Assembly: GCA_964606385.1 (NCBI GenBank)
Contig: CAZSFZ010000009.1
Span: 5,762-69,761 of the forward strand
Direction: 5' to 3'
Length of the DNA stretch: 64,000 nt
Source: an uncultured bacterium
GTDB taxonomy: Bacteria; Omnitrophota; Omnitrophia; Omnitrophales; Aquincolibacteriaceae
Of the stretch, positions 33,295 to 59,522 are shown piece after piece. Made by a program: the position numbers and the translations under genes. The notes under the pieces were generated by a model that worked only from the letters and a program-made list of their open reading frames with translations, did no database searches and was not told the origin of the DNA. Position 1 is the stretch's first letter. Every line of letters starts with the position of its first letter.

Positions 33295-33305
33295 ACCGGA
33301 AAGTA

Positions 33306-36267: not shown

Positions 36268-36278
36268 TCCCCGGACCT

Positions 36279-37862: not shown

Positions 37863-37913
37863 GTCTACAATTTTGTAGACTTTAATTACCTTCTTGTATA
37901 CAAATTTGTATAC
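37863..37913. promoter_or_regulatory. Two palindromic upstream activator sequences (candidate EBP binding sites)
   Basis: GTCTACAATTTTGTAGAC (perfect 8-2-8) and TTGTATACAA-ATTTGTATAC, 50-100 bp upstream of the sigma-54 promoter. Confidence 0.4.
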
Positions 37914-37963
37914 TCGAGACACCTGTCAGCGTATAATCCCTCAGTAACCTTTAATTTTCGAGT

Positions 37964-40391: not shown

Positions 40392-40488
40392 CATCCCATG
40401 GGTGTAGAACAAAACAGTGTTTGATAAGTTTCGTGATGACAAAAGTGTCGGACAAATTTGTAAGTGGATCAAAAAGGAGGATCGCACA

Positions 40489-42181: not shown

Positions 42182-42221
42182 TCGCCCTTTACCGGAAAAT
42201 CAAGCGACAAAGGAGAAAAAC

Positions 42222-43713: not shown

Positions 43714-43787
43714 CAATTTCGGAGCTCCGGGGGCCTTCCGATCGTGCATATCCATTGCTGGACAGTTCTCAAAAGGTGAAGTATTCT

Positions 43788-44978
43788 ATGCGCCAACGTA
43801 AAGGCTGTTTGGCCGGTTATCAAAGCCCACTGATTGACTTACCCCCAGTAGAAATCGTGAAAAAAGCGATACTAGCGCTCGAGGATGGTGTGTGGTTCGA
43901 AGGCGAAGGTTTTGGCGCCGACGGTGAAGCATTCGGGGAAGTCGTCTTCAATACGGGGTTGAGCGGGTACCAGGAGATCTTGACCGATCCTTCCTACAAA
44001 GGCCAGATGGTCTGCATGACCTACCCTCATATCGGCAATTACGGCATTAACGCCGCGGATGTCGAATCTTCCAGGCCCTGGGTCGAAGGATTTATCGTCA
44101 AAGAGGTCAGCCCGATCGTGAGCAATTACCGCTCCGAGATGACGCTCGACCAATACCTCAAACAATATAATATCCTCGGCATCCAGGGGATCGATACCCG
44201 CAAACTTGTGAAGCACCTCCGGACCGTGGGCGCGAAGAAAGCCGTCATTTCCACGCTGGAACAGGATCCCCAAAAACTTGTCCAAAAGGCCAAAAGGTCC
44301 CCGAGCATTGTCGGCGTGGACCTCGTCAAGGAAGTGACCTGCCCGAAGCCGTACGTTTTCGAAGAAACGATGCCGTCGGAGTTCGCGTGGGGCGCCGCCC
44401 AGAAAAGAAGGTTCAAGGTCGTCGCGGTGGATAGCGGTGTCAAATACAACATCCTGCGCAAGCTCAACCAGCACGGTTTCAACGTCCAGGTCGTTCCGGC
44501 CAGCGCGACCGCGGAAGAGATCCTGGCCTATAAACCGGACGGCGTTTTCCTCGCGAACGGTCCCGGCGATCCCGCGGCGGTGCAGTACCTTGTCACCGCG
44601 GTCCGCAAACTGATCGGCAAAGTCCCGATGTTCGGGATCTGTCTCGGTCACCAGATGATCGGACAGGCCCTTGGCGGCAAGACCTCCAAACTCAAGTTCG
44701 GCCACCACGGCAACAACCATCCGGTGATGGACCTGAAGACGCGAAAGATCGAGATCACCTCGCAGAACCACAACTTTGTCGTGAATATCGACACGCTTCC
44801 GAAAGGGGATGTCGAGATCACGCATGTCAATTTGAACGATAAAACGCTCGAAGGCCTGCAGCACAAGAAACACCCGCTTTTCAGCGTCCAGTACCACCCG
44901 GAAAACGCTCCCGGGCCGCATGACAGTGATTATCTTTTTACCCGTTTTTATGAACTGATCAGTCAACACGTAAGTTAA
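43788..44978 (+). CDS. carA: Carbamoyl-phosphate synthase small (glutaminase) subunit
   Basis: 'GICLGHQ' GATase motif. 396 aa from the ATG at 43788. Confidence 0.85.
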
Positions 44979-44997: not shown

Positions 44998-47900
44998 ATG
45001 CCAAAACGCAACGACATTAATAAGATCCTGATCATCGGATCGGGGCCGATCATTATCGGCCAGGCCTGCGAGTTCGATTATTCCGGGACCCAGGCTTGTA
45101 AAGCGCTCCGCAAAGAAGGGTACGAGATCGTGCTCGTCAATTCCAATCCCGCGACGATCATGACGGATCCGGAAATGGCGGACCAGACCTATATCGAACC
45201 ATTGACCCTGGAGAGCCTTGAGAAGATCATTGCCAAGGAACGGCCGGACGCGCTTCTTCCCAATCTGGGCGGTCAGACGGGGCTCAATCTCTCTTCTGCG
45301 CTTTATAAAAACGGCATTCTCGAAAAATACGGCGTTCAGATCATCGGGGTGAAGGCGGACGCCATCGAACGGGGTGAGGACCGTGAGGTTTTCAAGGCCA
45401 CCATGGCCCAGCTCGGGATCCCGGTGCCTCAATCGGCGACGGCCAATACCGTCGAAGAATGCGAAGCGATCGCCCAGAAGATCGGTTACCCGGTCGTGAT
45501 CCGTCCCGCGTATACAATGGGCGGAACGGGCGGCGGGATCGCCTATAACGTGGAAGACCTGCGGGTGATCGCGCTCCGGGGGCTTACGGTGAGTATTGCC
45601 CGCCAGGTGCTGATCGAAGAAGCAGTGATCGGATGGGAAGAGCTGGAACTCGAGGTCGTCCGCGACGCGAAGAACCAGAAGATCACGGTATGTTTTATCG
45701 AGAACGTGGACGCGATGGGCGTGCACACCGGGGACAGTTTTTGCGTGGCGCCGATGCTCACGGTCGCGCCCGAGCTCCAGAAAAAGCTCCAGGAATATTC
45801 TTATAAGATCGTCGACGCGATCGGTGTGGTCGGAGGCACGAACATCCAGTTCGCGCACAATAAAAAAGACGGCCGCGTGGTGGTGATCGAGATCAATCCG
45901 CGCACGTCCCGTTCGTCCGCGCTCGCTTCGAAAGCGACGGGGTTTCCGATCGCGATGGTGTCAACGCGTCTTGCGGCCGGTCTCACGATGGATGAGATCC
46001 CTTACTGGCGGGATGGGTCGCTTGAGAAATACACGCCGAGCGGGGAGTACGTGGTCGTGAAATTCGCCCGTTGGGCGTTTGAAAAGTTCCCCAAGGCCCA
46101 GGATGTTTTGGGAACGCAGATGAAAGCTGTCGGCGAGGTCATGTCCATCGGCAAGAATTTCAAGGAGGCTTTTCAGAAGGCCATCCGGTCTCTCGAGATC
46201 GGCCGCTACGGCCTCGGTGGGGCCAAAGATTTCAAGCAGCTGACCGTCGAACAGCTCCGGGGTCGCCTGGCGCATGCTTCCAGCGAACGGATCTTCCTCA
46301 TGTATGAAGCCCTTCGGAAGGGTTTCTCCGTCGAAGAGCTTTACCGCATGACCCACATCGGGCTGTGGTTCATCCAGGAAATGAAGGACCTCGTGACGTT
46401 CGAGGAAGAGATTATCCAGAATCCTTGGGACAAATTCACGGACAAGGACCTCGTGAAGGCCAAGGAATGGGGTTTTTCGGACCGGTACCTTGCGGGGCTT
46501 TTCGGGGTTTCGGAGACGGCGGTGCGTGAACGCCGCATCCGCCTCGGCAAGATCGCCCGGTATGAGGCCGTTCCTGTGAGCGGCGTGGAAAACGCGGCGT
46601 ATTATTACTCCACCTATCACGTGGGTAAGGAAGATGTGGCGGTTTCCAGGAATAAAAAGATCCTGATCCTGGGCGGCGGGCCGAACCGGATCGGGCAGGG
46701 GATTGAATTCGATTACACCTGCGTGCACGCGGTGATGGCGCTCCGCGCGGCCGGTTATGAATCGATCATGATCAACTGTAACCCCGAAACGGTATCGACC
46801 GACTACGATACGGCGAACAAGCTTTATTTTGAGCCCCTGACGGTGGAGGACGTTCTGACGATCTATGAAAAAGAAAAACCGGACGGCGTGATCGTCCAGT
46901 TCGGCGGACAAACGCCTCTCAATATCGCCAGGCAGCTTAAAGACGCGGGTGTGAAGATCCTGGGGACCACCCCGGAAAGCATCGCGTTCGCGGAAGACCG
47001 CGAACTTTTCCGCGAAAAAATGATCGAGCTCGGCATCCCGCAGCCCGAAAGCGGCATCGCGCGTTCGTTGGAAGAGGCGCTTGGGATCGCGGAGCGGATC
47101 GGCTATCCCCTCATGGTCCGTCCTTCTTTCGTGCTCGGCGGCCGCGGCATGGAGATCATTTACGATGAGGCCATGCTGAGAAAATACGCGGTGGAAGCCA
47201 TCAAGGTGAGCCCGGAGCATCCGATGCTGATCGACCGGTTCCTGGATAAGGCGCTTGAATGCGAAGTGGACGCCCTTTCCGACGGGACCGACGCTTTTGT
47301 CACGACGGTCATGGAACACATTGAATGGGCCGGGGTGCATTCGGGGGATTCGGCCTGCTCCATCCCGAGCCGGACGATCTCCAAAGAGCATCTGAAGCAG
47401 ATCGAGGACTACACGGCCAAGATCGCCAAGGCGCTCAGCGTCGTGGGCCTCATCAATGTCCAATACGCGATCTGCGACGGTAAGGTCTATATCCTGGAAG
47501 CGAACCCCCGCGCCTCGCGCACGGTGCCGATCGTTTCCAAAGTGACGGGAGTTCCGATCGCGCGCATCGCGACCGAAATGATGCTCGGCAAAAAGATCGG
47601 TGATTTCCCGCAGCTCAAGAATGTCAAAGCGCGGTTTTTCGGCGTGAAAGAAGCCGTGTTCCCCTTCAACATGTTCCCCGAAGTCGATCCGATCCTGGGT
47701 CCCGAAATGCGGGCGACGGGAGAAGTGATGGGGGTGGGGGATAATTTCGGCGCGGCGTTCTACAAGGCGCAGGAAGCCACGGGCGCGAAGCTTCCGCTGG
47801 AAGGGAATGCTCTTTTAACGGTGGCGGGTAAGGACAAGGAGATGCTGCCGCCTATCGCGAAAAAACTGATCTCGCTCGGTTTCAAGATCTTCGCGACGGA

Positions 47901-48219
47901 GAAGACCAGCGCGTTCCTGACGGCGCAAAAGATCGAGAACACCTTCATTAAAAAGATCCATGAAGGGCAGCCGAATATCGCGGACGCGATCAAGAACGGC
48001 GAACTGCAGCTGATCATCAACACGCCGGAAGGACGCGGCAGCCAGGTGGACGACAGCTACATCCGCATGATGGCGATCCAGCGCAAGCTGCCGTACGTGA
48101 CCTCCATCGCGGCGGCGGAAGCGACCGTGGAAGGCATCACCGCGGCGAAAAAAGACAAGATCACGCCCAAATCCCTTCAGGATTATTACGGCGTCAAGAA
48201 ACAGATGGTGGCGGTTTAA
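44998..48219 (+). CDS. carB: Carbamoyl-phosphate synthase large subunit, copy 1
   Basis: Two ATP-grasp halves ('[21 protein letters not shown]' / '[24 protein letters not shown]') plus MGS-like C-terminus. 1073 aa. Confidence 0.9.
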   Translation: MPKRNDINKILIIGSGPIIIGQACEFDYSGTQACKALRKEGYEIVLVNSNPATIMTDPEMADQTYIEPLTLESLEKIIAKERPDALLPNLGGQTGLNLSSALYKNGILEKYGVQIIGVKADAIERGEDREVFKATMAQLGIPVPQSATANTVEECEAIAQKIGYPVVIRPAYTMGGTGGGIAYNVEDLRVIALRGLTVSIARQVLIEEAVIGWEELELEVVRDAKNQKITVCFIENVDAMGVHTGDSFCVAPMLTVAPELQKKLQEYSYKIVDAIGVVGGTNIQFAHNKKDGRVVVIEINPRTSRSSALASKATGFPIAMVSTRLAAGLTMDEIPYWRDGSLEKYTPSGEYVVVKFARWAFEKFPKAQDVLGTQMKAVGEVMSIGKNFKEAFQKAIRSLEIGRYGLGGAKDFKQLTVEQLRGRLAHASSERIFLMYEALRKGFSVEELYRMTHIGLWFIQEMKDLVTFEEEIIQNPWDKFTDKDLVKAKEWGFSDRYLAGLFGVSETAVRERRIRLGKIARYEAVPVSGVENAAYYYSTYHVGKEDVAVSRNKKILILGGGPNRIGQGIEFDYTCVHAVMALRAAGYESIMINCNPETVSTDYDTANKLYFEPLTVEDVLTIYEKEKPDGVIVQFGGQTPLNIARQLKDAGVKILGTTPESIAFAEDRELFREKMIELGIPQPESGIARSLEEALGIAERIGYPLMVRPSFVLGGRGMEIIYDEAMLRKYAVEAIKVSPEHPMLIDRFLDKALECEVDALSDGTDAFVTTVMEHIEWAGVHSGDSACSIPSRTISKEHLKQIEDYTAKIAKALSVVGLINVQYAICDGKVYILEANPRASRTVPIVSKVTGVPIARIATEMMLGKKIGDFPQLKNVKARFFGVKEAVFPFNMFPEVDPILGPEMRATGEVMGVGDNFGAAFYKAQEATGAKLPLEGNALLTVAGKDKEMLPPIAKKLISLGFKIFATEKTSAFLTAQKIENTFIKKIHEGQPNIADAIKNGELQLIINTPEGRGSQVDDSYIRMMAIQRKLPYVTSIAAAEATVEGITAAKKDKITPKSLQDYYGVKKQMVAV

Positions 48220-48252: not shown

Positions 48253-51200
48253 ATGGCGAAACGAACGGACATCAAGAAGATCCTTATCATCGGTTCCGGC
48301 CCGATCATCATCGGTCAGGCCTGCGAATTCGATTATTCCGGCGCCCAGGCTGTGAAAGCCCTGAAAGAGGAGGGCTATAAGGTCGTCCTGATCAATTCCA
48401 ACCCCGCGACGATCATGACCGATCCGGAGCTCGCGGACGCGACCTATATCGAGCCGCTGACCGTGGAATTCCTCGAGAAGGTCATCATGAAGGAAAAGCC
48501 CGACGCGGTCCTGCCGACCATGGGTGGACAAACGGGGCTGAACCTCGCGGTCGAGGCCTTTGAGGCAGGTGTGTTCAAACGTCATAACGTTGAGATGATC
48601 GGCGCGAAATACGAAGCGATCAAAAAAGCCGAGAACCGGGAAGAATTCAAGCGCGCGATGCAGAAGATCGGCCTGGACCTTCCCAAAAGCGATTTCGCGT
48701 ATTCGCTGGAGGAGGCCGAAAAGGTCGCCGAAAAGATCGGTTATCCGGTGATCGTCCGCGCGAGTTTCACGCTCGGCGGTTCCGGAAGCGGTGTTTGCCA
48801 TAATGTCGAGGAGCTCCGGGCTACGGCCCGTACAGGACTCGACTACAGCCGGGTCCACGAGATCCTGATCGAGGAATCGATCGTCGGGTGGAAGGAATAC
48901 GAGCTCGAGGTCATGCGGGACAAGAATGATAATTTCGTTGTGATCTGCTCGATCGAGAACCTGGACCCGATGGGGATCCATACGGGTGATTCCATTACCG
49001 TGGCGCCCGCACAGACCCTGACGGACCGGGAATACCAGCGGATGCGCGACGCCGCCCGCAAGGTTATGTCCGAGATCGGGATCGAGACCGGCGGTTCGAA
49101 CGTCCAGTTCGCGGTCGATCCCAAAAACGGGCGCATGGTCATCATTGAAATGAACCCGCGCGTTTCCCGGTCTTCGGCCCTGGCATCCAAAGCCACGGGA
49201 TTTCCCATCGCGAAATTCGCGGCCAAACTCGCGGTCGGCCTCACGCTTGATGAGATCCCGAACGATATCACGAAGTACACGCCCGCCTCCTTCGAACCCT
49301 CGATCGACTATTGCGTGGTCAAGATCCCGCGTTTTGCTTTTGAGAAATTCGAAGGGGTGGATGACCGTCTGACCACCCAGATGAAATCCGTGGGGGAGGT
49401 GATGTCGATCGGCCGCACTTTTAAGGAATCTTTCCAGAAAGGCCTGCGTTCGCTCGAGACCAAGCGGTTCGGTTTCGGCGGGGACGGCAAAGATAAGGTT
49501 TTCGACCTTGAGCTTAAGACTCGCGCGGCGTACGTGAAATTCCTGCATCAGGCCCCGAATGATGGGGAGCTCCGCAAAAAGATCTTCGAACATGTCAAGA
49601 TCCCGCGCGACGGACGGGTCTTCTATCTGAAATACGCGTTCCTCGCGGGGTTCACCCTGGAGGAGATCTACAAACAGACAGGCGTTGATCCCTGGTTTCT
49701 CGCCCAGCTCAAGCAGATCATCGATCTCGAAAAAGAGCTTCTGGACGCGCGGGGGGACGAAAAGGAGCGGAAGTCCCTGCTCCGCAAGGCCAAGCAGTAC
49801 GGATTTTCGGATGTCCAGCTCGCCTTCTTCTGGGGCATGCGACAGCCCGAGGTAAGAAAGCTCCGGAAAAAAATCGGGATCAAACCGGTTTACAAACTGG
49901 TGGATACCTGCGCCGCCGAATTCAAGGCCTATACCCCTTATTTTTATTCGACCTATGAGGATGAAGACGAAGCGAACCCCAGCCGCAAAAAGAAGGTCAT
50001 GATCCTGGGCGGCGGGCCGAACCGGATCGGACAGGGGATCGAGTTCGATTACTGCTGCGTGCACGCGGTGTTCGCGCTCAAAAAAATGGGTTATGAGACC
50101 ATCATGGTCAACTCGAACCCCGAAACGGTCTCAACCGATTACGACACGTCCGACAAGCTTTTCTTCGAGCCGCTCACGCTGGAAGACGTGCTCAATATCT
50201 ATGAGAATGAAAAACCGGTCGGAGTGATCCTGCAGTTGGGCGGGCAGACCCCTCTTAACCTTGCGAAATCCCTTCTGGCGAACGGCGTCAGGATCCTCGG
50301 CACTTCTGTGGACGCGATCGATCGCGCGGAAGACCGGGACCGGTTCAAGAAGCTCCTTAAAAAGATCGGTCTCCGTCAGCCCGCGAATGGGATCGCGACC
50401 AGCCTCGAAGAAGCCCAGCAGATCGCTAAAGAGATCGGCTATCCCGTGGTGATCCGGCCGTCCTACGTGCTCGGCGGGCGCGCGATGGAGATCGTCTATG
50501 ACCAGACCTCGCTCAAGAAATACATGAAGACCGCTGTCGAGGCGAGCGATGACCAGCCTATTCTGATCGATAAATTCCTTGAGGATGCGACCGAAATGGA
50601 CGTGGACCTTATTTCGGACGGGAAGACAGCCGTTGTGGGCTCGGTGATGGAACATATTGAAGAGGCCGGCATCCATTCGGGCGACAGCGCGTCCGTGATC
50701 CCTCCCTTTTCTGTTTCTCGTGAGATCGTCGAAGAGATCGTCCAAAAGACCAAACAGATCGCCAAGGAACTGCATGTCGTGGGCCTCATGAACGTCCAGT
50801 ACGCGATCCAGAAGGACCAGGTCTATTGCCTGGAGGTGAATCCGCGCGCTTCCCGGACCGTGCCTTTCGTGAGCAAAACGATCGGGGTGCCGCTCGCGAA
50901 GCTCGCGGCCCAGCTCATGGTCGGGAAAACCTTAAAAGATCTCAAATTCACCGAAGAGATCATCCCGAAACACGTCGCGGTGAAAGAATCCGTGTTCCCG
51001 TTCGTGAAATTTCCGGGCGTGGACATCATCCTGTCCCCCGAAATGAAATCCACCGGGGAAGTGATGGGGATCGATAAGGATTTCGGGAAGGCTTTCTATA
51101 AATCGCAGGATGCGGCGATGTCCCATATCCCGCGCAAAGGCACGGTTTTTATCAGCGTCAAGGATACCGACAAACCGAAGATCGCCGAGGTCGCGAGGGA

Positions 51201-51543
51201 TTTCCACCGGCTTGGTTTCAAGGTCGTTTCGACCAAAGGCACCGCGCAGGTCCTGAGGGATTACCGGGTTCCCGTCCAGGAGATCCTGAAGATCACCGAG
51301 GGAAGCCCCCACATCGGGGACTGGGTCAAAACCAAGAAGATGGATCTCATTATCAACACGCCGAGCGGCAAGGGCCCCATGCTGGACGAGGGCAAGATCC
51401 GTTCACTCGCGGTCTCTTTCAATATTCCCTGCATCACGACCTTGAGCGCCGCGCGCGCCGCGATCCGGGGACTTCAGGCTGTCAAGGACGATGACCTGGA
51501 TGTGCGGTCGATCCAGGATTATCAGGGGATGAATAGCAAATAA
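48253..51543 (+). CDS. carB: Carbamoyl-phosphate synthase large subunit, copy 2 (diverged paralog)
   Basis: Full length, 1096 aa. Both ATP-grasp halves and the MGS domain are intact. Roughly 60% identity to copy 1 by eye. Confidence 0.9.
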
Positions 51544-51579
51544 TTTGCTGCGGTTGTATCAACATAAAAGGAAAGTACT

Positions 51580-54156
51580 TTGATCAGTTCAGGAGTGAGA
51601 GGTCTCGATAAGGTCACGACGGGGCTCCGCCTCGGCGATAACGTCGTCTGGCAGGTCGATGCCATCCATCATTACGTGGAATTCGTCACGCCTTTCGTGC
51701 AAAAAGCCCTCGAAGAAAAACGCCGGCTTGTCTACATCCGCTTCGCCAATCACGAACCTCTTCTTAAAGAGAATCCCAATATCAAGGTCTACAAGCTCGA
51801 CCCGCATATCGGATTCGAACCTTTTTCCGCGGAGATCCACAGCATCGCGAAAAAAGAAGGCGAAGGCGTTTTTTATGTGTTCGACTGCCTCTCCGACCTT
51901 CTCTCGGCCTGGGCCAATGACCTCATGATCGGGAATTTCTTCAAGATCACCTGCCCGTACCTTTATGAACTCAACACGATCGCCTATTTCGCGCTCTTGC
52001 GGAGCCGGCATTCGTTCAAGACCGTCGCGCGCATCCGCGACACGACCCAGCTTTTGATCGATCTCTATTACTATCACGGCGATTGTTACGTCCATTTCCT
52101 CAAGGTCTGGAACCGGTATTCCCCGACGATGTTCCTGCCGCATGTCCGTCAGAAGGACAAATTCGTTCCCATCGCCAACAGCGCCGACACGGCGAAGGTT
52201 TTTTCGGAGATCTTCAAGAAAGGCGCCAAGAGCGCCAAACGAAACCTGGATTACTGGGACCAGCTTTTCATGAAGGCCGAAGACCTGGCGGGGCAGAAGA
52301 AGGCCTCCCGCGAGGTTAAGGAACAGATGATGGACCAGCTATGCCGGATTGTCCTGGCCCGCGATGAAAAAATGCTGGGGTTGGCCAAGGCAAACCTTGA
52401 GCTGGATGACCTGCTCACGATCAAATCAAGGATGATCGGGACCGGGTTCATCGGCGGCAAATCGGTCGGGATGCTGATCGCCCGGAGCATTTTATCAAAG
52501 GAGAAATCCCTCGAGGCCGAAAAACTTTTTGAACCGCACGATTCCTTTTATATCGGGTCTGATGTTTTTTACACGTATATCGTGGAGAACGGCCTGTGGA
52601 AAGACCATATGGCCCAGCGGACCCCTGAAGGTTATTTTGATGTCGCCGGAAAACTCCACGATGAGCTGGCGCGCGGCGTGTTCCCGGAAGAGATCAAGGA
52701 CCAGTTCCAGCAGATGATCGAATATTTCGGGCAATCGCCGATCATCGTCCGTTCGAGCAGCCTTCTCGAGGATAGTTACGGGAACGCGTTCGCGGGAAAG
52801 TATGAAAGTGTTTTTCTTGTGAATCAGGGCACGCCCGACGAGCGGTTCGTGAAGTTCGTTGAGGCGGTGAGAAGGATCTACGCGTCTACCATGAACCCGG
52901 ATGCCCTGGCCTACCGCCGGCAGCGCGGCCTCGACCAGATGGACGAGCAGATGGCGCTTCTGGTGCAGCGCGTTTCGGGCGCCTATCACCAGGATTATTT
53001 TTTTCCGGACGCGGCCGGCGTCGGGATCTCGCAGAATGTTTTCGTCTGGAAAAATGGTTTGGACCCCAAGGCGGGCATGTTGCGCCTTGTGTTGGGGCTT
53101 GGCACCCGCGCGGTGAACCGCGTGGAAGGGGATTACCCGCGTGTTGTGGCGCTGGATGAACCGCTTCTCAAGGCTTACGCCGGGATGGCGGCGACCCAGC
53201 GGTTCTCCCAGCATGAAGTCGACGTGCTCAACATCAAAGAAAACGCGCTGCAGACGGTCTCTTTCAGGAAGCTGCTGAAGGAAAAAATGGAAATGCCGCT
53301 GGAGCTTTTGGCGATCAAGGACCATGAGGTCGCGGAAAAGTTAAAAGAAATGGGTTCGGAGGAGGAACCCTGGATCATCACGTTCGACGAGCTTCTCTCA
53401 AAGACGGAATTTTCCGGGATCATGCAGAAGATCCTGAAATCGCTGGAAACGGCCTACGGGTATCCCGTGGATATCGAGTTCACGGTGAATTTCAAGAAGA
53501 ACGGCGCTTTCCAGGTGAACCTGCTCCAGTGCCGTCCGATGCAGACCAAGGGCCTGGGCCATCGCGTGAAGATCCCTAAAACGATCGCGAAGGACAAGAT
53601 CCTTTTCCAGGCGAAAGGGAATTTTCTGGGCGGGAACATCCTGCAGGCGATCGACAAGATCATCTACGTGGATCCCCAAGCCTATTGCGCGCTCGAGACG
53701 CAATCCGACCGGTATGATGTCGCGCGCGCGGTGGGAGAGCTCAACCGCATGATCGGAAGCCGGGACCGCATGGCCGTGATGCTCCTCGGGCCCGGCCGGT
53801 GGGGGACGACGACCCCGTCGCTTGGGGTGCCGGTTTCATTCGCCGAGATCAACCATATCACTATCCTGGGGGAGATCGCGTTTGTGTCGGAGAATGCGTC
53901 CCCCGAGATCTCTTTCGGGACGCACTTTTTCCAGGACCTCGTGGAGACGGGGATCTTTTACGTGGCGCTTTTCCCCGATGACGCCGGGACTTTCATGAAT
54001 CAGAAATTTTTTGACGCGGCCCCCAAAACGCTCCGGAAACTCGCGCCGGAATACAAGAAGTACAAGCACGTGATCAAGGTCTGCGACGTCAAAAAAGAGC
54101 ATCTCAAGATCGCGGCGGACATCCTCTCCCAAAAAGTCGTCTGTTACTTCGAATAA
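51580..54156 (+). CDS. Multidomain protein: degenerate RecA/KaiC-like N-terminus fused to a PEP-utilising (PPDK_N ATP-grasp) domain
   Basis: N-terminus 'SGVRGLDKVTTGLRLGDNVVWQVD' resembles the KaiC/RadA GLD..GG..G lead-in but has no Walker A. The C-terminal half has 'GGKSVGM', 'IIVRSSSLLEDSYGNAFAGKYESVFLVN', 'MALLVQRVSG', 'VDIEFTVN...LLQCRPM', all typical of PEP synthase/PPDK N domains. Confidence 0.65.
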   Translation: MISSGVRGLDKVTTGLRLGDNVVWQVDAIHHYVEFVTPFVQKALEEKRRLVYIRFANHEPLLKENPNIKVYKLDPHIGFEPFSAEIHSIAKKEGEGVFYVFDCLSDLLSAWANDLMIGNFFKITCPYLYELNTIAYFALLRSRHSFKTVARIRDTTQLLIDLYYYHGDCYVHFLKVWNRYSPTMFLPHVRQKDKFVPIANSADTAKVFSEIFKKGAKSAKRNLDYWDQLFMKAEDLAGQKKASREVKEQMMDQLCRIVLARDEKMLGLAKANLELDDLLTIKSRMIGTGFIGGKSVGMLIARSILSKEKSLEAEKLFEPHDSFYIGSDVFYTYIVENGLWKDHMAQRTPEGYFDVAGKLHDELARGVFPEEIKDQFQQMIEYFGQSPIIVRSSSLLEDSYGNAFAGKYESVFLVNQGTPDERFVKFVEAVRRIYASTMNPDALAYRRQRGLDQMDEQMALLVQRVSGAYHQDYFFPDAAGVGISQNVFVWKNGLDPKAGMLRLVLGLGTRAVNRVEGDYPRVVALDEPLLKAYAGMAATQRFSQHEVDVLNIKENALQTVSFRKLLKEKMEMPLELLAIKDHEVAEKLKEMGSEEEPWIITFDELLSKTEFSGIMQKILKSLETAYGYPVDIEFTVNFKKNGAFQVNLLQCRPMQTKGLGHRVKIPKTIAKDKILFQAKGNFLGGNILQAIDKIIYVDPQAYCALETQSDRYDVARAVGELNRMIGSRDRMAVMLLGPGRWGTTTPSLGVPVSFAEINHITILGEIAFVSENASPEISFGTHFFQDLVETGIFYVALFPDDAGTFMNQKFFDAAPKTLRKLAPEYKKYKHVIKVCDVKKEHLKIAADILSQKVVCYFE

Positions 54157-54381: not shown

Positions 54382-54867
54382 GTGACGGATGCTGTGAGAA
54401 GGTTTCTTGCCGCTTTCATCTTCATGACCCTGCCGTTCGTGTACGCGCAGCCCGTTTCTTTTTCCCAGGATCTCGCGTTGAGTCCCGGGACCTCTCCGTC
54501 GGCTTTCTCACTGTTTTCAACGGCAGGGGATGTGATGGTTCCCGGGGCCGTTTTTTACGGGACCGCGTCCTGGTACAGCCGGTCCGATCGCGGCGTCAAA
54601 AAGAGAACAGCGAGCGGCGCTGTTTTTGATCACTCGAAAAAGACCTGCGCCGCGTGGGGATTGCCGTTCGGGACCCGGGTCCGGGTGACCAATCTGGAGA
54701 ACGGGCGTTCCGTGATCTGCACCGTGAATGACCGCGGGCCTTCGAAAAAACTCAAACGCCTGGTGGACCTGACTAAAAGCTCTTTCAAGGAGATCGCGAA
54801 CCCCCGGCACGGCCTTATCCGGGTTAGCGTGGTCCCTCTTGAGGCCGACTCAAAAGGATCCCTCTGA
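54382..54867 (+). CDS. rlpA: RlpA-like (DPBB) septal-ring lytic transglycosylase family protein
   Basis: GTG start with GGGAGG RBS. Signal peptide. 'GTASWYS...GVKKRTASGAVFD...AAWGLPFGTRVRVTNLENGRSVICTVNDRGP'. Confidence 0.7.
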   Translation: MTDAVRRFLAAFIFMTLPFVYAQPVSFSQDLALSPGTSPSAFSLFSTAGDVMVPGAVFYGTASWYSRSDRGVKKRTASGAVFDHSKKTCAAWGLPFGTRVRVTNLENGRSVICTVNDRGPSKKLKRLVDLTKSSFKEIANPRHGLIRVSVVPLEADSKGSL

Positions 54868-54913
54868 ATTTGCGCTGGTCATCCCCCGGGTTCGATGCTA
54901 GATTATCCCCGCC

Positions 54914-55291
54914 ATGCAGAGAATCGCTAAGATATTCACCACTTTTTTTGTTTTGTTCGCCTTCGTTTGTCCTTTGATGGCCGGGGAGGTGGCACCGGAA
55001 GCGGACATTCAAAATAACGGGACGTTTATGCGTAAAGCCCAGCGCGGGTTCCTCAATATCGCGCTCTCTCCTTTTGAGATCTCCAACGAACTTGCCAAAG
55101 AGGTCCGGAAAGACACCCTGCCGCCGAGTTGGATCGCCGGAGCGGGCCGCGGCGCTTTCTACATGGTGGGACGTGCTTTGGTGGGCGTGTATGAGCTGGT
55201 GACTTTTCCGATCCCTTATCCCGCGAATTATCAGCCGATCCTTAAGCCCGAATTTCCCTGGGAACTCGCCGAGAATAAACCGAATTTCTAA
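54914..55291 (+). CDS. Small secreted protein, TIGR04073-like (exosortase-system-associated family)
   Basis: Signal peptide. 'RGFLNIALSPFEI...GAGRGAFYMVGRALVGVYELVTFPIPYPANYQPILKPEF' resembles the family's R.GxxN...E....G...G..R..VGVYE.VTFP.P motif (from memory). Confidence 0.4.
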   Translation: MQRIAKIFTTFFVLFAFVCPLMAGEVAPEADIQNNGTFMRKAQRGFLNIALSPFEISNELAKEVRKDTLPPSWIAGAGRGAFYMVGRALVGVYELVTFPIPYPANYQPILKPEFPWELAENKPNF

Positions 55292-56421
55292 CGAGTAAGA
55301 AAAGCGAGCACTTCTTTCGCGGCGCGCGTGCTCGCGCCTTTTTCCCCGAGTTTTTCCCGCACTTGACGGAACTCTTCTTTCATTTTCTTCTGTAATTCCG
55401 GGCTTTGGAGGAACACTTTCGCTTCGTGGGCGAGCGTTTCGGAATGGGCGTCCTGCTGGATGAACTCCGGGATCACGCGGGTATCGGCAAGAAGGTTCAC
55501 AAGCCCGAGGTAGGGAACTTTGATCAGGCGTTTTCCGAGGAAGTACGTCGACCAGCTTGCTTTATAGAGCAGAAAGAACGGCGTTCCGAGGAGCGCCGTC
55601 TCAAGCGTGGCGGTGCCGGAAGCCACATACGCGAAATCCATCGATTTGACGAGTTCGTAGAAGGGAACCGAAGGACATTGAACTTCAAGGTCTGATCCGT
55701 GGAGTAGTGCGTCATAGACTTCCGGCCGGACGTTCAGCGACCTGGAAATAAAAAAAGACGCTTCCGGAATATCTTTTTTCAGCAAAGCGGCCGCCTGGAG
55801 CATGACGGGGAGGATCCTTTTCACCTCTTTTTCTCTCGAGCCTGAAAAAAGGCCGATCGCTTTTTGCCCCGGGGCGATGCCGATCCTGGCGCGTAGCACT
55901 GCCGCTTCCGGAAGGACCGGGATCGCATCCAGCAGGGGATGCCCCACAAATTTGACGGCCACACCCTCCTTTTCATAAAAATCTTTCTCGAAGGGAAGGA
56001 TCACAAGCATCTCACGGATATGTTTCTTCACAATATGGATCCGGCGCTTGCCCCAGGCCCAGAGTTGCGGCGAGATGTAATAAAGCACCGGAGCATTTGC
56101 GGGGAGCTTTTTGGCAAGCCGGAGATTGAAAGCCGGAGAATCGATCAGGACCACGGCATCCGGCTTCTCATCCCGGATATTCGCAAGCGTTTCGTTGAAG
56201 ATCTTCAGGTACTTGAAATAGTTCCGGAGGACATCCCCCAGGCCGAGCGCGGAGATCTTTGTCATGTCGTTAAAGACCTGCATGCCTGCCGCCTGCATTT
56301 TTGCGCCGCCCACGCCGCAAAAAACCGTATCCGGCACGAGCTTTTGGATCTCCGAGATCAGATGAGCGCCGTGGAGATCGCCCGAGGCTTCACAAGCGAC
56401 GAGGAATATCTTTTTAGACAT
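55288..56421 (-). CDS. lpxB: Lipid-A-disaccharide synthase
   Basis: 'MSKKIFLVACEASGDLHGAHLI' GT-B N-terminus. 377 aa. Confidence 0.85.
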   Translation of the reverse strand: MSKKIFLVACEASGDLHGAHLISEIQKLVPDTVFCGVGGAKMQAAGMQVFNDMTKISALGLGDVLRNYFKYLKIFNETLANIRDEKPDAVVLIDSPAFNLRLAKKLPANAPVLYYISPQLWAWGKRRIHIVKKHIREMLVILPFEKDFYEKEGVAVKFVGHPLLDAIPVLPEAAVLRARIGIAPGQKAIGLFSGSREKEVKRILPVMLQAAALLKKDIPEASFFISRSLNVRPEVYDALLHGSDLEVQCPSVPFYELVKSMDFAYVASGTATLETALLGTPFFLLYKASWSTYFLGKRLIKVPYLGLVNLLADTRVIPEFIQQDAHSETLAHEAKVFLQSPELQKKMKEEFRQVREKLGEKGASTRAAKEVLAFLTR

Positions 56422-56440
56422 AGAATTCGGCGGTTGTATT

Positions 56441-56566
56441 TAAATTCGAAATACGAAGCGCGAAATCCGAAACAAAATTTAAACCCGAATTTCTTAATGT
56501 CTCAAGCGTTTTAAATTTTGGTAATTCGAATTTGTTTCGAGTTTCGGATTTAGGATTTCGGATTTT
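56441..56566. repeat. AT-rich ~125-bp quasi-palindromic element built of CGAAAT/ATTTCG heptamer-like units
   Basis: Left arm ttcgaaatacgaagcgcgaaatccgaaacaaaattt. Right arm aaattcgaatttgtttcgagtttcggatttaggatttcggatttt. Lies between lpxB start and the upstream gene end. Confidence 0.5.
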
Positions 56567-56625
56567 GGCCATAGAGGTTATGAATTCATCAAAAGCCGTT
56601 TAGGAAAGCCAGGTTCGATCTCATT

Positions 56626-57567
56626 TTAATGAGAATCGCTCGGTTTGGGGTGTTCGGCCTGGATCTTGCGCGCGATCTCGAGAGCGATCGCGAGGGCATC
56701 CCGGGCTGCCGTATCGGGCTTTCCGATGCTTTTTCCGGTGCTGATCCCGTTCAAGAAGAATCGCAACTCTTCTTTCAGAGGTTCGGCCTTTTCGATGGAG
56801 ACTTCCTCCTGATGGACCTCGTTCCCGGTCTTGCGGATGATCTTGCCGGTCTGGGCGCCGTAATCGAGTGAGATGTAGGCGTCTTCCTGGAAGATGCGGA
56901 TCTTTCGCTGTTTTTCGAAGGTCAGGCGTGAGGCGGTAATGTTGGCGACGGCGCCGTTCTTGAACTTGAGGCGTACATTTGCGATGTCCTCGAAAGGCGT
57001 GAGGACATTCACACCGAGCGCATCGAAGCCTGCGACAGGGGAATCGACCAGCCCCATCACGATATCCAAGTCATGGATCATGAGGTCCAGCACCACGCCG
57101 CAATCGTTGATCCGTCCCGTGAAAGGCCCGAGGCGGTGGATCTCGAGAAAACGGATGTTTTTCGCGATCTCACGGACGCGTTTGAAACCGGGATTGTGCC
57201 GCTCAATATGTCCGACCTGAAGGGATAAATTCTTTTGTCGGGCAAGTTCGAGAAGTTCGTCTGCTTCTTTCAGGTTCAGCGTGATCGGTTTTTCGATCAG
57301 GGTGTGGATGCCGGCCTTGAGGAACTCTTTGGCGACGGCGTAATGGGTCGAGGTCGGGGTGGCGATACTGACGGCTTCCACTTTACCGATCAGGTCCTTG
57401 GGGTCGGCATAATAGGCAGTCCCGAGTTCCTTGGCTTTATCCGCCTTGGCGGGGTCCTGGTCCGAGATCCCGACCAGTTCGGCCTCGGGGAGGTCACGAT
57501 AGATCCGGGCATGTTCTTTGCCGAGGTGACCCACGCCGACGACGCCGACTTTCAGGGGTTTTTGCAT
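56626..57567 (-). CDS. Gfo/Idh/MocA-family NAD(P)-dependent oxidoreductase (possible GnnA-type UDP-GlcNAc 3-dehydrogenase)
   Basis: 'LKVGVVGVGHLGKEHARIY' Rossmann N-terminus, 'EKP' motif. Position beside lpxB suggests a lipid-A role, but there is no adjacent aminotransferase. Confidence 0.7.
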   Translation of the reverse strand: MQKPLKVGVVGVGHLGKEHARIYRDLPEAELVGISDQDPAKADKAKELGTAYYADPKDLIGKVEAVSIATPTSTHYAVAKEFLKAGIHTLIEKPITLNLKEADELLELARQKNLSLQVGHIERHNPGFKRVREIAKNIRFLEIHRLGPFTGRINDCGVVLDLMIHDLDIVMGLVDSPVAGFDALGVNVLTPFEDIANVRLKFKNGAVANITASRLTFEKQRKIRIFQEDAYISLDYGAQTGKIIRKTGNEVHQEEVSIEKAEPLKEELRFFLNGISTGKSIGKPDTAARDALAIALEIARKIQAEHPKPSDSH

Positions 57568-57688
57568 CCGAAATCCTTCATATCACAATAGTTATCGGGA
57601 AGAAAAATAACGCTCAAGGAGCTTAAATCATAACCTTGAGCAGTGTCAACGGATATGTTACAGTGTGGGCCCTTGCTTTCCAAGGGCC

Positions 57689-57745
57689 CGGGAAACGGAG
57701 AACGTCGAACGTCATCGTTTCCCGTTCCCCATTTACTGTTCCCCG
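57689..57745. repeat. GGAACGN/NCGTTCC heptamer-array palindromic element (copy E)
   Basis: ggaaacggagaacgtcgaacg-tcat-cgtttcccgttccccatttactgttcccc. Preceded by the hairpin gggccctt-gctttcc-aagggccc. Confidence 0.55.
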
Positions 57746-57758
57746 ATCCGGGAGGATT

Positions 57759-59522
57759 ATGGACATCTATAAACGACTACTGGGTTATGTGAAACCGTAC
57801 CGCTGGCGCCTTGCCGTCGCCTTCCTGTGCATGCTCGCTTTTTCAATGGCGAACGCGCTGGTCTCGGTCGCGCTCTACGTCATCACCAAAGGGTTCTTTC
57901 AAAAGAACCAGGTGGTTGTGGACAATGTTCCTTACATCTCCAAATATTTTCCGCAGCTGACCTCGGTCGCGTTGCCCATGATCTGGATCCCGGGCATTCT
58001 GATCGGGGTTTTTGCCTTGCGCGGTTTTTTCGATTACATTTCAAACTATAACATGGCCAACGTGGGGATCCTTGCGATCCGCCAGGTCCGGGACGATCTC
58101 TACCGTCATCTGGTCTATCTCTCTCATGATTTTTACTCGAAGGGCCGCACGGGAGATTTTTTAAGCCGTATCACCAACGACGTGAGCCAGATCCAGGGCG
58201 CGATCACGGATGTGATCACGGACCTCATCAAACAACCGCTCGTCATTCTCTTCAACATCCCGTTTATTTTTATCTGGGGCGGGAAATTCGCGATCATCGC
58301 GATATTCGTCTTTCCGCTCGTGGCCATCCCGATCGTGCTTTTGGGGAAACAGCTCCGGAAATTGACAAAAAAGATGCAGGCGCGGGTCGGCGACATCACC
58401 TCCTTTATCGGGGAGACCTTGTCCGGGGCCCATATCGTCAAGGCCTTTACCAGCGAAGAACGCGAGATCCGGCGTTTTGAAGAGATCAATTTCGCCGTGT
58501 TCAATTACTTCAGAAAAACGATCAAGGTCACGATCATCCAGCGCCCCTTGATCGAGTTGATCGGCGCGGTCGGCGCGGGGTTTGCCGTGTGGTACGGGAT
58601 GCAGTACCTTTCGCCGGAGCGTTTTGCCGCTTTTTTTATCTCTCTCTACATTTGTTATGAGCCTCTCAAAAAGCTGAGTAAAGTGAATAGCACGATCCAG
58701 CAGTCGATCGCTTCGGGGCAGCGTATTTTCGAGATCCTGGACGCCAAACCCACGATCCATAACAAACCGGATGCCCTTGTTTATCACGAACCGGTCCGCG
58801 AGATCAGCTTTGAGCACGTGGGGTTCTATTATGAACTTGATAAATGGGTGCTCAGAAATATCGAGATCAAGGCCAAGCACAATGAGGTGGTCGCCTTCGT
58901 GGGAGCCAGCGGCTCGGGAAAAACGACGCTCGTGAGCCTGCTCCTCCGGTTTTATGACCCCGTGGAAGGTGTGATCAAGATCAACGGCAAGGATATCCGG
59001 GATCTCACGCTGCACTCCCTCAGAAGCCTGATCGGGATCGTTTCCCAGGAGACCGTGCTGTTTAACAGCACGATCCGGGAGAACATCGCTTATGGCCGTC
59101 CGGAGGCAAGCCTCGATGACATCAAGCGTGCCGCCGAGATCGCCTATGCCTCTCATTTTATCGAAGCCCTGCCGCAAGGCTATGAAACGCCGCTCGGGGA
59201 CCGGGGACTCAAGCTTTCGGGCGGCGAGCGCCAGCGTATCGCGATCGCCCGCGCGCTTTTAAAGGACCCGCCGATCCTGATCCTTGATGAGGCGACCTCG
59301 CATCTGGATACCCAAAGCGAAAAAGAGGTCCAGAACGCCTTGGAGAACCTTATGAAGGAGCGTACGGTTTTCGTGATCGCTCACCGTCTTTCTACCATCC
59401 AAAAAGCCGACCGCATCCTTGTGATGGACAAAGGCAAGATCGTCCAGCAGGGAACGAACGAGTTCCTCCTGCGCCTCGGCGGCATGTATAAAAAACTCTA
59501 CGACCTGCAGTTTAATCTTTGA
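57759..59522 (+). CDS. msbA: ABC transporter permease/ATPase, MsbA-like lipid A flippase
   Basis: 6 TM plus NBD with 'GASGSGKTT', 'LSGGERQRIAIARAL', 'ILILDEATS'. ATG at 57759 with GGGAGGA RBS. Upstream ORF-track extension rejected. Confidence 0.8.
   Translation: MDIYKRLLGYVKPYRWRLAVAFLCMLAFSMANALVSVALYVITKGFFQKNQVVVDNVPYISKYFPQLTSVALPMIWIPGILIGVFALRGFFDYISNYNMANVGILAIRQVRDDLYRHLVYLSHDFYSKGRTGDFLSRITNDVSQIQGAITDVITDLIKQPLVILFNIPFIFIWGGKFAIIAIFVFPLVAIPIVLLGKQLRKLTKKMQARVGDITSFIGETLSGAHIVKAFTSEEREIRRFEEINFAVFNYFRKTIKVTIIQRPLIELIGAVGAGFAVWYGMQYLSPERFAAFFISLYICYEPLKKLSKVNSTIQQSIASGQRIFEILDAKPTIHNKPDALVYHEPVREISFEHVGFYYELDKWVLRNIEIKAKHNEVVAFVGASGSGKTTLVSLLLRFYDPVEGVIKINGKDIRDLTLHSLRSLIGIVSQETVLFNSTIRENIAYGRPEASLDDIKRAAEIAYASHFIEALPQGYETPLGDRGLKLSGGERQRIAIARALLKDPPILILDEATSHLDTQSEKEVQNALENLMKERTVFVIAHRLSTIQKADRILVMDKGKIVQQGTNEFLLRLGGMYKKLYDLQFNL

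Follow-up and report, generated by a model that had tools for sequence, protein, structure and literature searches.

The Locus and Its Genes

The target gene lies on the forward strand of a 64,000-nt stretch of DNA (the window), where it ends the gene order GS-III–Amt–porin–carA–carB–carB–target. The features of this region are as follows:

38010–40124, forward strand: glutamine synthetase (GS) type III, context gene
40417–41817, forward strand: ammonium transporter Amt, context gene
43755–44978, forward strand: carA, carbamoyl-phosphate synthase small subunit, context gene
44998–48219, forward strand: carB copy 1, context gene
48253–51543, forward strand: carB copy 2, context gene
51565–51573, forward strand: Shine-Dalgarno-like AAAGGAAAG, ending 7 nt upstream of the target's TTG
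51580–54156, forward strand: target ORF, 858 aa, TTG start, stop codon included

The two carB copies are 50% identical to each other, and the true start of carA probably lies downstream of the listed TTG. The target is followed by genes for an RlpA-like protein, LpxB, and an MsbA-like ABC transporter. The original prediction had placed the target directly after carA-carB-carB and before cell-envelope genes, and the gene coordinates agree with this placement. A 36-nt gap, in which no terminator-like site was found, separates the stop codon of the second carB from the target, and we infer that the two genes are co-transcribed. A defense-system reading of the target finds no support from PADLOC, whose sole match (15.8 bits) is spurious, and the context consists of housekeeping genes.

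The N-terminus of the target lines up with that of its homologs, and the protein is 100% identical to a database protein (P0001). More than 8000 relatives were scored, and the family is spread over at least 599 species genomes in at least 10 phyla; thus, the target ORF is a real gene and not a chance ORF. Identity between phyla is 49–60% over 858 aa, which indicates strong constraint. The family is large, highly conserved, bacterial, and uncharacterized: its NCBIfam scores fall far under the cutoffs, no Pfam model covers the N-terminal or the C-terminal domain, and literature searches found no paper on a family joining a KaiC-like domain, an ATP-grasp, and an orphan C-terminal domain. This bears out the earlier view that the architecture does not belong to a characterized family. 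The Desulfovibrio “nitrate cluster” also encodes a PPDK_N protein, DVU0246, which has a swivel domain and is distinct from this family. The additional members of one BLAST cluster looked at first sight like tandem paralogs and are actually unrelated REC proteins, GAF-sigma54 proteins, and histidine kinases, brought in by the chaining of single linkage.

A Three-Domain Architecture

The protein has three domains, compared with the two originally described:

51580–52329, forward strand: N-terminal domain, aa 1–250, KaiC/FlaH-type RecA fold without Walker A
52330–53586, forward strand: ATP-grasp domain, aa 251–669, Pfam PPDK_N at aa 291–669
53587–54153, forward strand: C-terminal domain, aa 670–858, orphan alpha/beta domain and constant companion of the ATP-grasp
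53791–53799, forward strand: P738-G739-R740 in the Gly-rich loop GPGRWGT after a strand, with P738 and R740 invariant
53923–53925, forward strand: His782, invariant, at the N-terminus of helix 781–790, motif S-[FY]-G-[TS]-H-F-F-Q-D-L-V-E

The fusion of a KaiC-like part to PPDK_N was seen correctly from the outset, while the separate 189-aa C-terminal domain was overlooked. The ATP-grasp is therefore central rather than C-terminal, as 189 more conserved residues come after it. Long forms of 1460–1500 aa have the arrangement [grasp+CTD]-[NTD+grasp+CTD], where NTD and CTD are the N- and C-terminal domains. The ATP-grasp and C-terminal domain travel together, also in each of the two modules of a long form, and the KaiC-like domain never occurs alone, being fused to an ATP-grasp in every case.

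The N-terminal domain was modeled with confidence (AF2 pLDDT 92.3) and matches KaiC/FlaH structures in Foldseek (E 5e-12 to 1e-9, TM 0.62–0.67), in agreement with the KaiC/RecA-like N-terminus first proposed. The motif quoted in that proposal is present as residues 5–32, GVRGLDKVTTGLRLGDNVVWQVDAIHHY. The loss of the P-loop, also proposed, is borne out by the model, in which the linker between strand 21–26 and helix 29–45 is 2 residues long, and by the absence of the Walker A motif G....GK[ST] from the whole target protein and from all 149 retrieved relatives. What is conserved instead is a remodeled site comprising G19-D20-N21 before strand 1, W24, Y52, R54, and H58 after strand 2, D102 and S105 in the Walker-B-like segment FDCLSDL, W111, and D114. 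According to the model strands and the family alignment, the invariant D102 stands at the end of strand 98–101 (YVFDCLS), in a Walker-B-like setting, and R54/H58 follow strand 2, apparently where KaiC-type proteins have their catalytic Glu-Glu. Because this former ATP site is so highly conserved (G19-D20-N21, R54, H58, D102, S105), the residue pattern suggests a function going further than the pseudo-ATPase scaffold of the original prediction. Pfam KaiC and ATPase models gave no match in 53 family members at E ≤ 1, and weak PAXNEB/Elp4 matches were obtained for five of these 53 (best E 0.0013).

The identification of the PPDK_N domain was sound. PF01326 matches the target with an E-value of 3.9e-51 over profile positions 4–324 of 328, and hhalign aligns the ATP-grasp with residues 47–380 of Escherichia coli PpsA (Prob 97%), with the ATP-site motifs in correspondence. 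These motifs are GGK294, R391-SSSLLED398, FAGK407, DIE633F, and LQ650CR652P, and K294, R391, E397/D398, K407, E633, Q650, and R652 show full invariance or a conservation of at least 90% in sets of 13–49 sequences reaching down to ~30% identity. Judged by these residues, the ATP-grasp is predicted to bind ATP and to be catalytically competent. The target returns no match at E ≤ 1 to PEP-utilizers (PF00391) or PEP-utilizers_C (PF02896), and its chain stops 189 aa past the ATP-grasp; as positive controls, E. coli PpsA returned all three Pfam domains, and PpsA and PtsI both matched PF00391. Every NCBIfam equivalog match is far under its cutoff, the best reaching 61 bits against 883. TIGR01418 scores 47 bits against 740, and NF041857 (rifampicin phosphotransferase/PRK06241 group) scores 33 bits against 999 in a match limited to aa 355–465. 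Since both the swivel domain and the PEP/pyruvate TIM barrel are missing, the domain content indicates that the target is not a PEP synthase.

The C-Terminal Domain and His782

The C-terminal domain was also modeled well (AF2 pLDDT 94), with His782 capping a helix. This residue is invariant in 49 diverse sequences and is kept in both C-terminal domains of the long forms. By its placement it is possibly a phospho-carrier or catalytic residue.

The domain has no PDB structural relative detectable by Foldseek (best E 0.024, TM ≤ 0.31, with no dikinase in the list), and Foldseek found no neighbor in BFVD. Its weak PDB neighbors are three-layer alpha/beta proteins. A profile of the domain matched nothing among PDB sequences, and Pfam searches with the C-terminal domains of 27 members gave nothing recurrent at E ≤ 10. 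A divergent swivel domain was considered and rejected, as the Foldseek, PDB-sequence, PpsA, swivel-profile, and Pfam comparisons are all negative: hhalign of the domain profile with E. coli PpsA yielded nothing in the swivel region (Prob <1%), and comparison with a profile of 18 swivel sequences (plasmid-borne PpsA, PPDK, PtsI, and PtsP together with E. coli PpsA and PtsI) gave a Prob of 0.5%. The PROSITE-type swivel motif G-[GA]-x-[TN]-x-H-[STA]-[STAV]-[LIVM](2)-[STAV]-R is also absent from the domain. The absence of the canonical swivel and TIM barrel, noted originally from the sequence, is thus upheld by the Pfam, Foldseek, PDB-sequence, and profile comparisons. The swivel idea had been prompted by GTHFFQDLVETGI standing in register with SHAAIIARELGI. 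SucD, the alpha subunit of succinyl-CoA synthetase (SCS), was also tried as a relative; the match covers only the 16-residue LLGPGRWGTTTPSLGVPV against SucD 38–53 and is not significant (Prob 3.5%).

What is left of a swivel likeness is the position of the domain, the order of its secondary structures, and an alignment to PpsA 355–380 that carries along its first hairpin (aa 670–694). As swivel homology, fold similarity, and the PROSITE-type motif are not detectable, a phosphohistidine role for this domain would follow from position, invariance, and analogy. It had been concluded earlier that the protein is not a dikinase. The canonical domains are indeed absent, but this conclusion does not follow, since the C-terminal domain stands at the place of the phosphohistidine domain in PpsA and could serve as the carrier of a phosphoryl group.

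Nitrogen-Assimilation Context Across Homologous Loci

The strongest functional clue is the genomic context. The original prediction had seen carAB and missed the wider nitrogen-assimilation setting that is conserved across homologous loci. By raw locus count, at least one ammonium-assimilation gene lies within ~8 kb at 54 of 79 homologous loci, and such a gene is within two genes of the target homolog at 47 of the 79. The neighbors in these 79 loci include glutamate synthase (GOGAT, 28), glutamate dehydrogenase (GDH, 26), GS-III (13), carA (11), Amt (10), PII (10), pyrG (8), and NrpR (7). The target homolog and the nitrogen genes often share an operon, with same-strand gaps of less than 150 nt to gltD (10 loci), gdh (6), a GAF-sigma54 activator (5), and carB (2). 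This link is seen in Omnitrophota, Planctomycetota, Desulfobacterota, Bacillota, Margulisiibacteriota, and Actinomycetota. Regulators, namely NrpR, GAF-sigma54 EBPs, LysR, and two-component systems, are frequent neighbors, and there is one fusion of a GAF domain to the N-terminus of a family member. The target gene thus belongs to an ammonium-assimilation gene set (GS, GOGAT, GDH, Amt/PII, CarAB, PyrG). Such synteny indicates co-regulation or a shared pathway, not the substrate of the protein.

Nitrogen genes are absent from 25 of the 79 loci, many of which are on short contigs. Five long-form loci that were examined have other neighbors, including QueF. One long-form locus encodes GlnE nearby, and this weakens the idea that the family replaces GlnE. 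A scan of the 400 nt upstream for sigma-54 (-24/-12) or NrpR (GGAA-N6-TTCC) consensus sites was uninformative, as matches occurred in just 2 of 80 loci.

Proposed Mechanism and Alternatives

Because the gene is found within operons for ammonium assimilation in many phyla, the family is probably an unrecognized ATP-driven player in nitrogen metabolism. The best reading is that the protein acts at the Gln/Glu node as an ATP-dependent phosphotransferase, possibly via His782. PPDK_N enzymes include PPS, PPDK, glucan water dikinases, rifampicin phosphotransferase, PigC/RedH, and phenylphosphate synthase, and, to our knowledge, all that have been characterized use a phosphohistidine carrier. In succinyl-CoA synthetase, an ATP-grasp can also serve a histidine on a Rossmann-like domain. 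The ATP-grasp and C-terminal domain would form the catalytic unit, and ATP bound by the grasp would phosphorylate His782, as the characterized PPDK_N enzymes all phosphorylate a histidine of an adjacent domain. The phosphoryl group would then move to an acceptor related to nitrogen status: the remodeled KaiC-like pocket could supply it, as a site or a bound ligand, or it could be a metabolite or partner protein belonging to the Gln/Glu node. Oligomerization is probably a further task of the KaiC-like domain. Taken as a whole, this account of a three-domain protein of the ammonium-assimilation set with phosphotransfer via His782 falls a little short of an even chance.

A bolder form of the phosphotransfer idea, which we regard as rather unlikely, would make the protein a nitrogen-status device, in which the ATP-grasp loads a new phosphohistidine domain and either the P-loop-less KaiC-like ring or PII, GS-III, or GOGAT is then phosphorylated. 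If true, KaiC-type phosphorylation would be “outsourced” to an ATP-grasp in anaerobes and other lineages, and the device would set the split of flux between GDH and GS-GOGAT in organisms whose control is poorly understood.

The alternative that deserves most weight, though still unlikely, dispenses with the phosphohistidine altogether: the ATP-grasp would act directly as a kinase or ligase on a small nitrogen metabolite (e.g., Glu, Gln, 2-oxoglutarate, or carbamate), by phosphate transfer or through an acyl-phosphate. The metabolite would be bound in the Rossmann-like C-terminal domain or the KaiC-like pocket, with His782 and Arg740 as binding or acid-base residues. A C-terminal domain that is not recognizable as a swivel, its strand and Gly-rich loop (GPGRWGT) of a kind typical of phosphate or nucleotide binding, its weak three-layer alpha/beta neighbors, and the tight operons with metabolic enzymes are all consistent with this view. 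It is opposed by the PPDK_N subfamily itself, whose characterized members, as far as is known, all phosphorylate a protein histidine; moreover, no ligand can be assigned, and a KaiC-like domain would be unexplained in a simple metabolic enzyme. It is also conceivable, with a low probability, that the protein is a non-catalytic sensor or scaffold, with ATP binding as the signal and a KaiC-like ring that regulates PII, GS, or transcription factors. The Walker-less RecA-like domain does resemble pseudo-ATPase rings (the weak Elp4/PAXNEB matches), and regulators are common among the neighbors. However, catalytic residues such as the Mg-binding E633 and Q650/R652, and likewise His782 and Arg740, are invariant across wide divergence, and such conservation exceeds the usual needs of a binding module.

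Two further explanations concern the nitrogen link and the PPDK_N label. The link could be incidental, arising from block inheritance or transfer or from co-regulation with carbon storage, and the protein could be, for example, a dikinase of glucan or another polymer. The long form of Geobacter sp. OR-1, which sits between an alpha-amylase-family gene and PGI, the unrelated neighbors at other long forms, and the 25 loci that have no nitrogen gene are in line with this. Pfam searches, however, found no carbohydrate-binding module, and the association recurs with differing partner genes and gene orders in at least six phyla, so block inheritance is insufficient; we hold an incidental link to be improbable, if marginally less so than a non-catalytic role. 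There is only a negligible chance that the protein functions as a true PEP synthase or pyruvate phosphate dikinase. PPDK_N is present, and the relative in Geobacter sp. OR-1 carries the database label “phosphoenolpyruvate synthase,” but this identity is refuted by the domain tests: PEP-utilizers and PEP-utilizers_C are absent here and present in the PpsA control, and the NCBIfam PEP synthase models score 29–61 bits against cutoffs of ~600–970, in the ATP-grasp core only.

Significance and Comparison With Known Systems

How ammonium assimilation is controlled is well known for enterobacteria (GlnD/GlnE/PII/NtrBC). Far less is understood for Omnitrophota, Planctomycetota, syntrophic Desulfobacterota, and many Firmicutes, groups in which GS type III and GDH are often used. 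With ~50% identity across phyla, at least 599 species, and operons with gltBD, gdh, glnK-amtB, carAB, and pyrG, the family stands out as a strong candidate if an enzyme or regulator is still missing at the Gln/Glu node. Geobacter, Syntrophomonas, and Anaerobacillus sp. MEB173 are cultured hosts in which this hypothesis could be pursued.

Among known systems, PpsA and PpdK share a homologous PPDK_N domain with GGK, RSS..ED, FAG(K/Q), DIE(F/W), and Q.RP, and in PpsA a domain with a conserved histidine directly follows the ATP-grasp, as in the target. The target differs in having neither the PF00391 swivel nor the PF02896 TIM barrel, in its extra KaiC-like N-terminal domain, and in its nitrogen-assimilation context, where that of PpsA/PpdK is gluconeogenic. 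The best NCBIfam likeness to the ATP-grasp core (E 6e-17 to 2e-8) is to rifampicin phosphotransferase, PRK06241-type “PEP synthases,” and PigC/RedH, with which the target shares a three-module logic of ATP-grasp, substrate domain, and His domain without a TIM barrel. These enzymes, however, have substrate-binding domains of their own and, at the C-terminus, a canonical swivel His domain, which the target does not have; the target scores 33–61 bits against cutoffs of 883–1350 and is unlike them in domain order and in both accessory domains.

Two further systems serve as analogies. In succinyl-CoA synthetase and the ADP-forming acyl-CoA synthetases, the histidine phosphorylated by an ATP-grasp sits at the start of a helix in a Rossmann-like alpha/beta domain, which the C-terminal domain of the target appears to resemble in kind; this parallel is mechanistic, and succinyl-CoA synthetase is missing from the Foldseek list of the domain. 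EI-Ntr of the nitrogen PTS (PtsP, a GAF domain plus Enzyme I) is PEP-driven through a TIM barrel and has a canonical swivel domain. As a phosphohistidine-type enzyme of the PEP-utilizing superfamily linked with nitrogen status, it may offer a functional analogy, with one member of the target family being GAF-fused and others co-transcribed with GAF-sigma54 activators. The target family, in contrast, would draw on ATP, and no acceptor resembling NPr is apparent.

At its N-terminus, the target shares with KaiC, archaeal FlaH (ArlH), and Elp4-type proteins the RecA fold, the GxxGLD lead-in, and apparently a Walker-B-like hhhhD strand, and, like Elp4-6, it has no canonical P-loop. It departs from KaiC-type proteins in lacking Walker A, in carrying R54/H58 at what appears to be the position of the catalytic Glu residues, and in its obligate fusion to an ATP-grasp. 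The family would extend what is known of enzyme evolution on two counts: its PPDK-type ATP-grasp would work in the absence of the canonical swivel, and its KaiC-fold domain has given up the nucleotide loop and kept a conserved pocket.

Gene and family distribution

The gene lies where the original prediction placed it, and the motifs quoted at that time are present in its product. A ribosome-binding-like AAAGGAAAG stretch lies upstream of the start codon, and the N-terminus falls at the same position as those of its homologs.

51580-54156, + strand: target ORF, TTG start, 858 aa

A sequence identical to the target is present in a public protein collection, and more than 8000 relatives were scored in the protein search, the closest of which are mostly from Candidatus Omnitrophota and are named only "PEP/pyruvate-binding domain-containing protein"; the window thus almost certainly derives from a member of Omnitrophota. 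When one genome was scanned for each species, relatives were found in at least 599 species. Among the best 80 loci of these, whole-length identity to the target is 48-87%, the nearest being an Omnitrophota locus (L001) at 87%, and the hosts comprise Omnitrophota, Planctomycetota, Desulfobacterota/Syntrophales/Geobacteraceae, Spirochaetota, Bacillota, Margulisiibacteriota, Aegiribacteria, Elusimicrobia, Binatia, Pseudomonadota, and Actinomycetota. The family has no dedicated Pfam or NCBIfam model and no solved structure, and a literature search found no paper on it, in agreement with the initial view that it is not a characterised family. DVU0246 of the Desulfovibrio nitrate cluster was considered and is a different PPDK_N protein that has a swivel domain.

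Domain organization

The target has three domains. An intact PPDK-type ATP site is combined with a KaiC fold that lacks a P-loop but has a conserved pocket, and with an orphan C-terminal domain (CTD). PPDK_N is the sole Pfam family detected (residues 291-669, E 3.9e-51, with almost all of the profile covered); residues 1-290 and 670-858 have no Pfam match. The original prediction likewise recognised PPDK_N but overlooked the separate CTD at 670-858. NCBIfam models for PEP synthase, PigC/RedH, and rifampicin phosphotransferase match weakly and only within the ATP-grasp core, with scores of 18-61 bits where the cutoffs run into the hundreds, and a PDB sequence search returned PEP synthases only, over residues 368-469 only. 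The Pfam mapping thus revealed PPDK_N alone and no complete PEP synthase, and membership tests for the swivel and TIM-barrel domains were negative, as anticipated; a genuine PEP synthase is refuted.

When the family alignment was compared with E. coli PpsA by hhalign, residues 321-694 matched PpsA 47-380 (Prob 97%). Alignments extending down to ~30% identity show the following motifs to be invariant or at least 90% conserved.

Conserved ATP-grasp motifs
GGK294
R391-SSSLLED398
FAGK407
DIE633F
LQ650-C-R652-P

Their counterparts in the nucleotide site of PPDK are its lysine, its arginine, the glutamate that binds Mg, and the Q/R residues, and by these motifs the domain looks catalytically competent.

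Residues 1-250 form the N-terminal domain (NTD), which was searched against 1.84 billion representative proteins. In the resulting 882 clusters (E<=1e-3) it is always N-terminal in proteins of ~850-885 aa or internal in long forms, and shorter matches look like contig-end fragments. The Walker-less KaiC-like domain originally proposed is upheld: Walker A is absent in 149/149 retrieved relatives, which share the motif GDN(V/I)VW, and a confident AlphaFold model (pLDDT 92.3, pTM 0.86; 53-sequence alignment) has a RecA-like fold with the P-loop missing. In this model strand 21-26 is linked to helix 29-45 by two residues only, so that a P-loop is physically absent. Foldseek matched the model to PDB structures of KaiC and of FlaH, an archaeal KaiC-like protein (E 5e-12 to 1e-9, probability 1.00, TM 0.62-0.67). 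Weak Pfam matches in 5/53 members (best E 0.0013) were to PAXNEB/Elp4, which likewise has the RecA fold and lacks a canonical P-loop. No or almost no variation is seen at G19-D20-N21, W24, Y52, R54, H58, D102, S105, W111, and D114. Judged from this conservation, the old nucleotide site has not decayed and its pocket is conserved, and a role as a mere scaffold is doubtful.

The CTD, with its invariant His and Arg, always accompanies the ATP-grasp domain. In its confident model (residues 670-858; pLDDT 94, pTM 0.91) strands and helices alternate. A strand leads into the Gly-rich loop GPGRWGT, which contains P738 and R740, and H782 sits at the N-terminal end of helix 781-790. None of these three residues varies across 49 diverse sequences, nor in either CTD of the long forms. 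A divergent swivel phosphohistidine domain was suspected because of the PpsA-like position, the similar order of secondary structure, and an H-x8-G-I motif in register, and was rejected on uniformly negative tests. Foldseek against the PDB gave a best E of 0.024 with TM <=0.31, and neither BFVD nor a profile search of all PDB sequences gave a match. By hhalign, no match was found within the swivel region of PpsA, and a swivel-domain profile of 18 sequences (plasmid-borne PpsA, PPDK, PtsI, and PtsP genes plus E. coli PpsA and PtsI) gave Prob 0.5%; Pfam searches of 27 CTDs found no recurrent match even at E<=10. The sole positive hint is that the ATP-grasp-anchored PpsA alignment extends into the first CTD hairpin with moderate posterior confidence. 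SucD was also rejected as a relative, the motif-level match to its residues 38-53 being insignificant (Prob 3.5%). LLGPGRWGTTTPSLGVPV (window 53782-53835, aa 735-752) resembles GVTPGKGGTTHLGLPV of the E. coli SucD CoA-binding domain, with 9/16 residues identical, which is not statistically significant.

Domain HMMs made from 105 single-module homologs were used to map relatives of 1460-1500 aa (e.g., Geobacter sp. OR-1), which are arranged as [ATP-grasp+CTD]-[NTD+ATP-grasp+CTD]. This repetition indicates that ATP-grasp and CTD form one unit, and that one NTD can serve two such units.

Genomic context

In the window, the target is the last gene of a same-strand block comprising GS type III, Amt, a porin, carA, carB, a second carB, and the target.

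38010-40124, same strand as target: GS type III
40417-41817, same strand as target: Amt
42093-43562, between amt and carA: BBP2/OmpL-like beta-barrel porin

The porin may be a nitrogen-related outer-membrane channel. The second carB and the target are separated by 36 nt that contain no terminator-like site. The tandem full-length carB genes (44998-48219 and 48253-51543) are 50% identical, and both exceed by far the cutoff of the NCBIfam model for the large subunit of carbamoyl-phosphate synthase; L001 has the same gene pair upstream of its homolog. The block is inserted in an outer-membrane/lipid-A gene cluster (30273-37000 and 54382-59522), with BamA, an LpxC-FabZ fusion (33306-34586), LpxA, and LpxI upstream, and an RlpA-like DPBB protein, LpxB (-), a GFO/IDH/MocA oxidoreductase (-), and an MsbA-like ABC transporter downstream of the target. 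A 542-aa ORF between LpxI and GS type III (36294-37922, -) has no Pfam or NCBIfam match, and a 125-aa ORF (54914-55291) matches the exosortase-system-associated TIGR04073 family.

Across the 80 best loci, ORFs were called (crudely), clustered by BLASTP, and recurrent clusters annotated with Pfam. This survey of homolog neighbourhoods, suggested with the original prediction, found at least one ammonium-assimilation gene within +-8 kb in 54/79 loci and within two genes in 47/79; many of the contigs surveyed are short.

Recurrent genes (number of the 79 loci)
Glutamate synthase gltB/gltD: 28
Glutamate dehydrogenase: 26 (24 within two genes)
GS type III: 13
carA: 11
carB: 7
Amt: 10
PII: 10
CTP synthase: 8
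NrpR: 7

Directly upstream on the same strand, at <150 nt, 10 loci have gltD, 6 have gdh, 5 have a GAF-sigma54 activator, and 2 have carB. Other repeated neighbours are LysR regulators and two-component systems with dCache sensor kinases. In such loci the family genes appear to belong to nitrogen-assimilation operons. A single in-frame fusion was seen, in a Syntrophaceae MAG (L031, 7383-10571; 1062 aa), where a GAF domain (aa 42-177) is joined at the N-terminus. In five Planctomycetota loci (L009, L010, L020, L034, L052; ~6400-7982), a ~525-aa GAF-sigma54-HTH_8 activator, divergent from an amt-glnK-GS-III cluster, precedes the family gene with a gap of ~18 nt. Small ORFs (74-98 aa) carrying a Fis-type HTH_8 motif separate GS-III from gltB in loci of Omnitrophota and Planctomycetia (L013, L023, L024, L027, L030; ~1700-2060).

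This nitrogen context is not shared by the five long-form loci examined, whose neighbours include an alpha-amylase-family protein and PGI (Geobacter sp. OR-1), QueF, and, at one locus, GlnE. In Geobacter sp. OR-1 (L099, 4500-14052), the long form lies on the same strand and with short gaps between a 1149-aa alpha-amylase-family gene and glucose-6-phosphate isomerase, a carbohydrate context that differs from that of the single-module clade.

Possible function

To our knowledge, every characterised PPDK_N enzyme phosphorylates a histidine on a neighbouring domain via its ATP-grasp, and for this reason the most economical model is one in which ATP-grasp and CTD would form an autophosphorylating unit acting via His782. 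The phosphoryl group would then pass to an acceptor tied to nitrogen status, which could be the KaiC-like pocket, a partner protein, or a metabolite of the Gln/Glu node. Taken as a whole, delivery from an autophosphorylating unit to a nitrogen-linked acceptor is a tentative reading that we place a little short of an even chance, while the phospho-His step through His782 is possible rather than probable. A kinase or ligase acting directly on a small molecule would share the conserved ATP site and dispense with phospho-His, consistent with the negative swivel searches; the invariance of His782 is what the autophosphorylation model would expect. A non-catalytic sensor would fit the P-loop-less pocket of the NTD, and the apparently competent ATP-grasp argues for catalysis.

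It is also conceivable that the nitrogen association is incidental, and the long-form neighbourhoods are compatible with this. Such neighbours were observed in 68% of loci, which are phylogenetically non-independent, against ~5% expected by a rough, uncomputed estimate (nine families, one to three copies, a ~3000-gene genome, ~10 flanking genes), and simple inheritance of a single block is argued against because partners and gene orders differ between phyla.

The original observation thus stands, and its interpretation stands in part, extended by the CTD and the nitrogen context. The result is a very widespread, strongly conserved protein of no known function with a clear, testable link to ammonium assimilation; it is a new architecture, and probably a new function, within the PPDK-type ATP-grasp superfamily. 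Among known systems, in its ATP-grasp it resembles the PPS/PPDK/rifampicin-phosphotransferase group but departs from it in the swivel-domain, TIM-barrel, and equivalog-score comparisons, and its NTD has the same fold as KaiC but differs from it in Walker A and in family-model matching.
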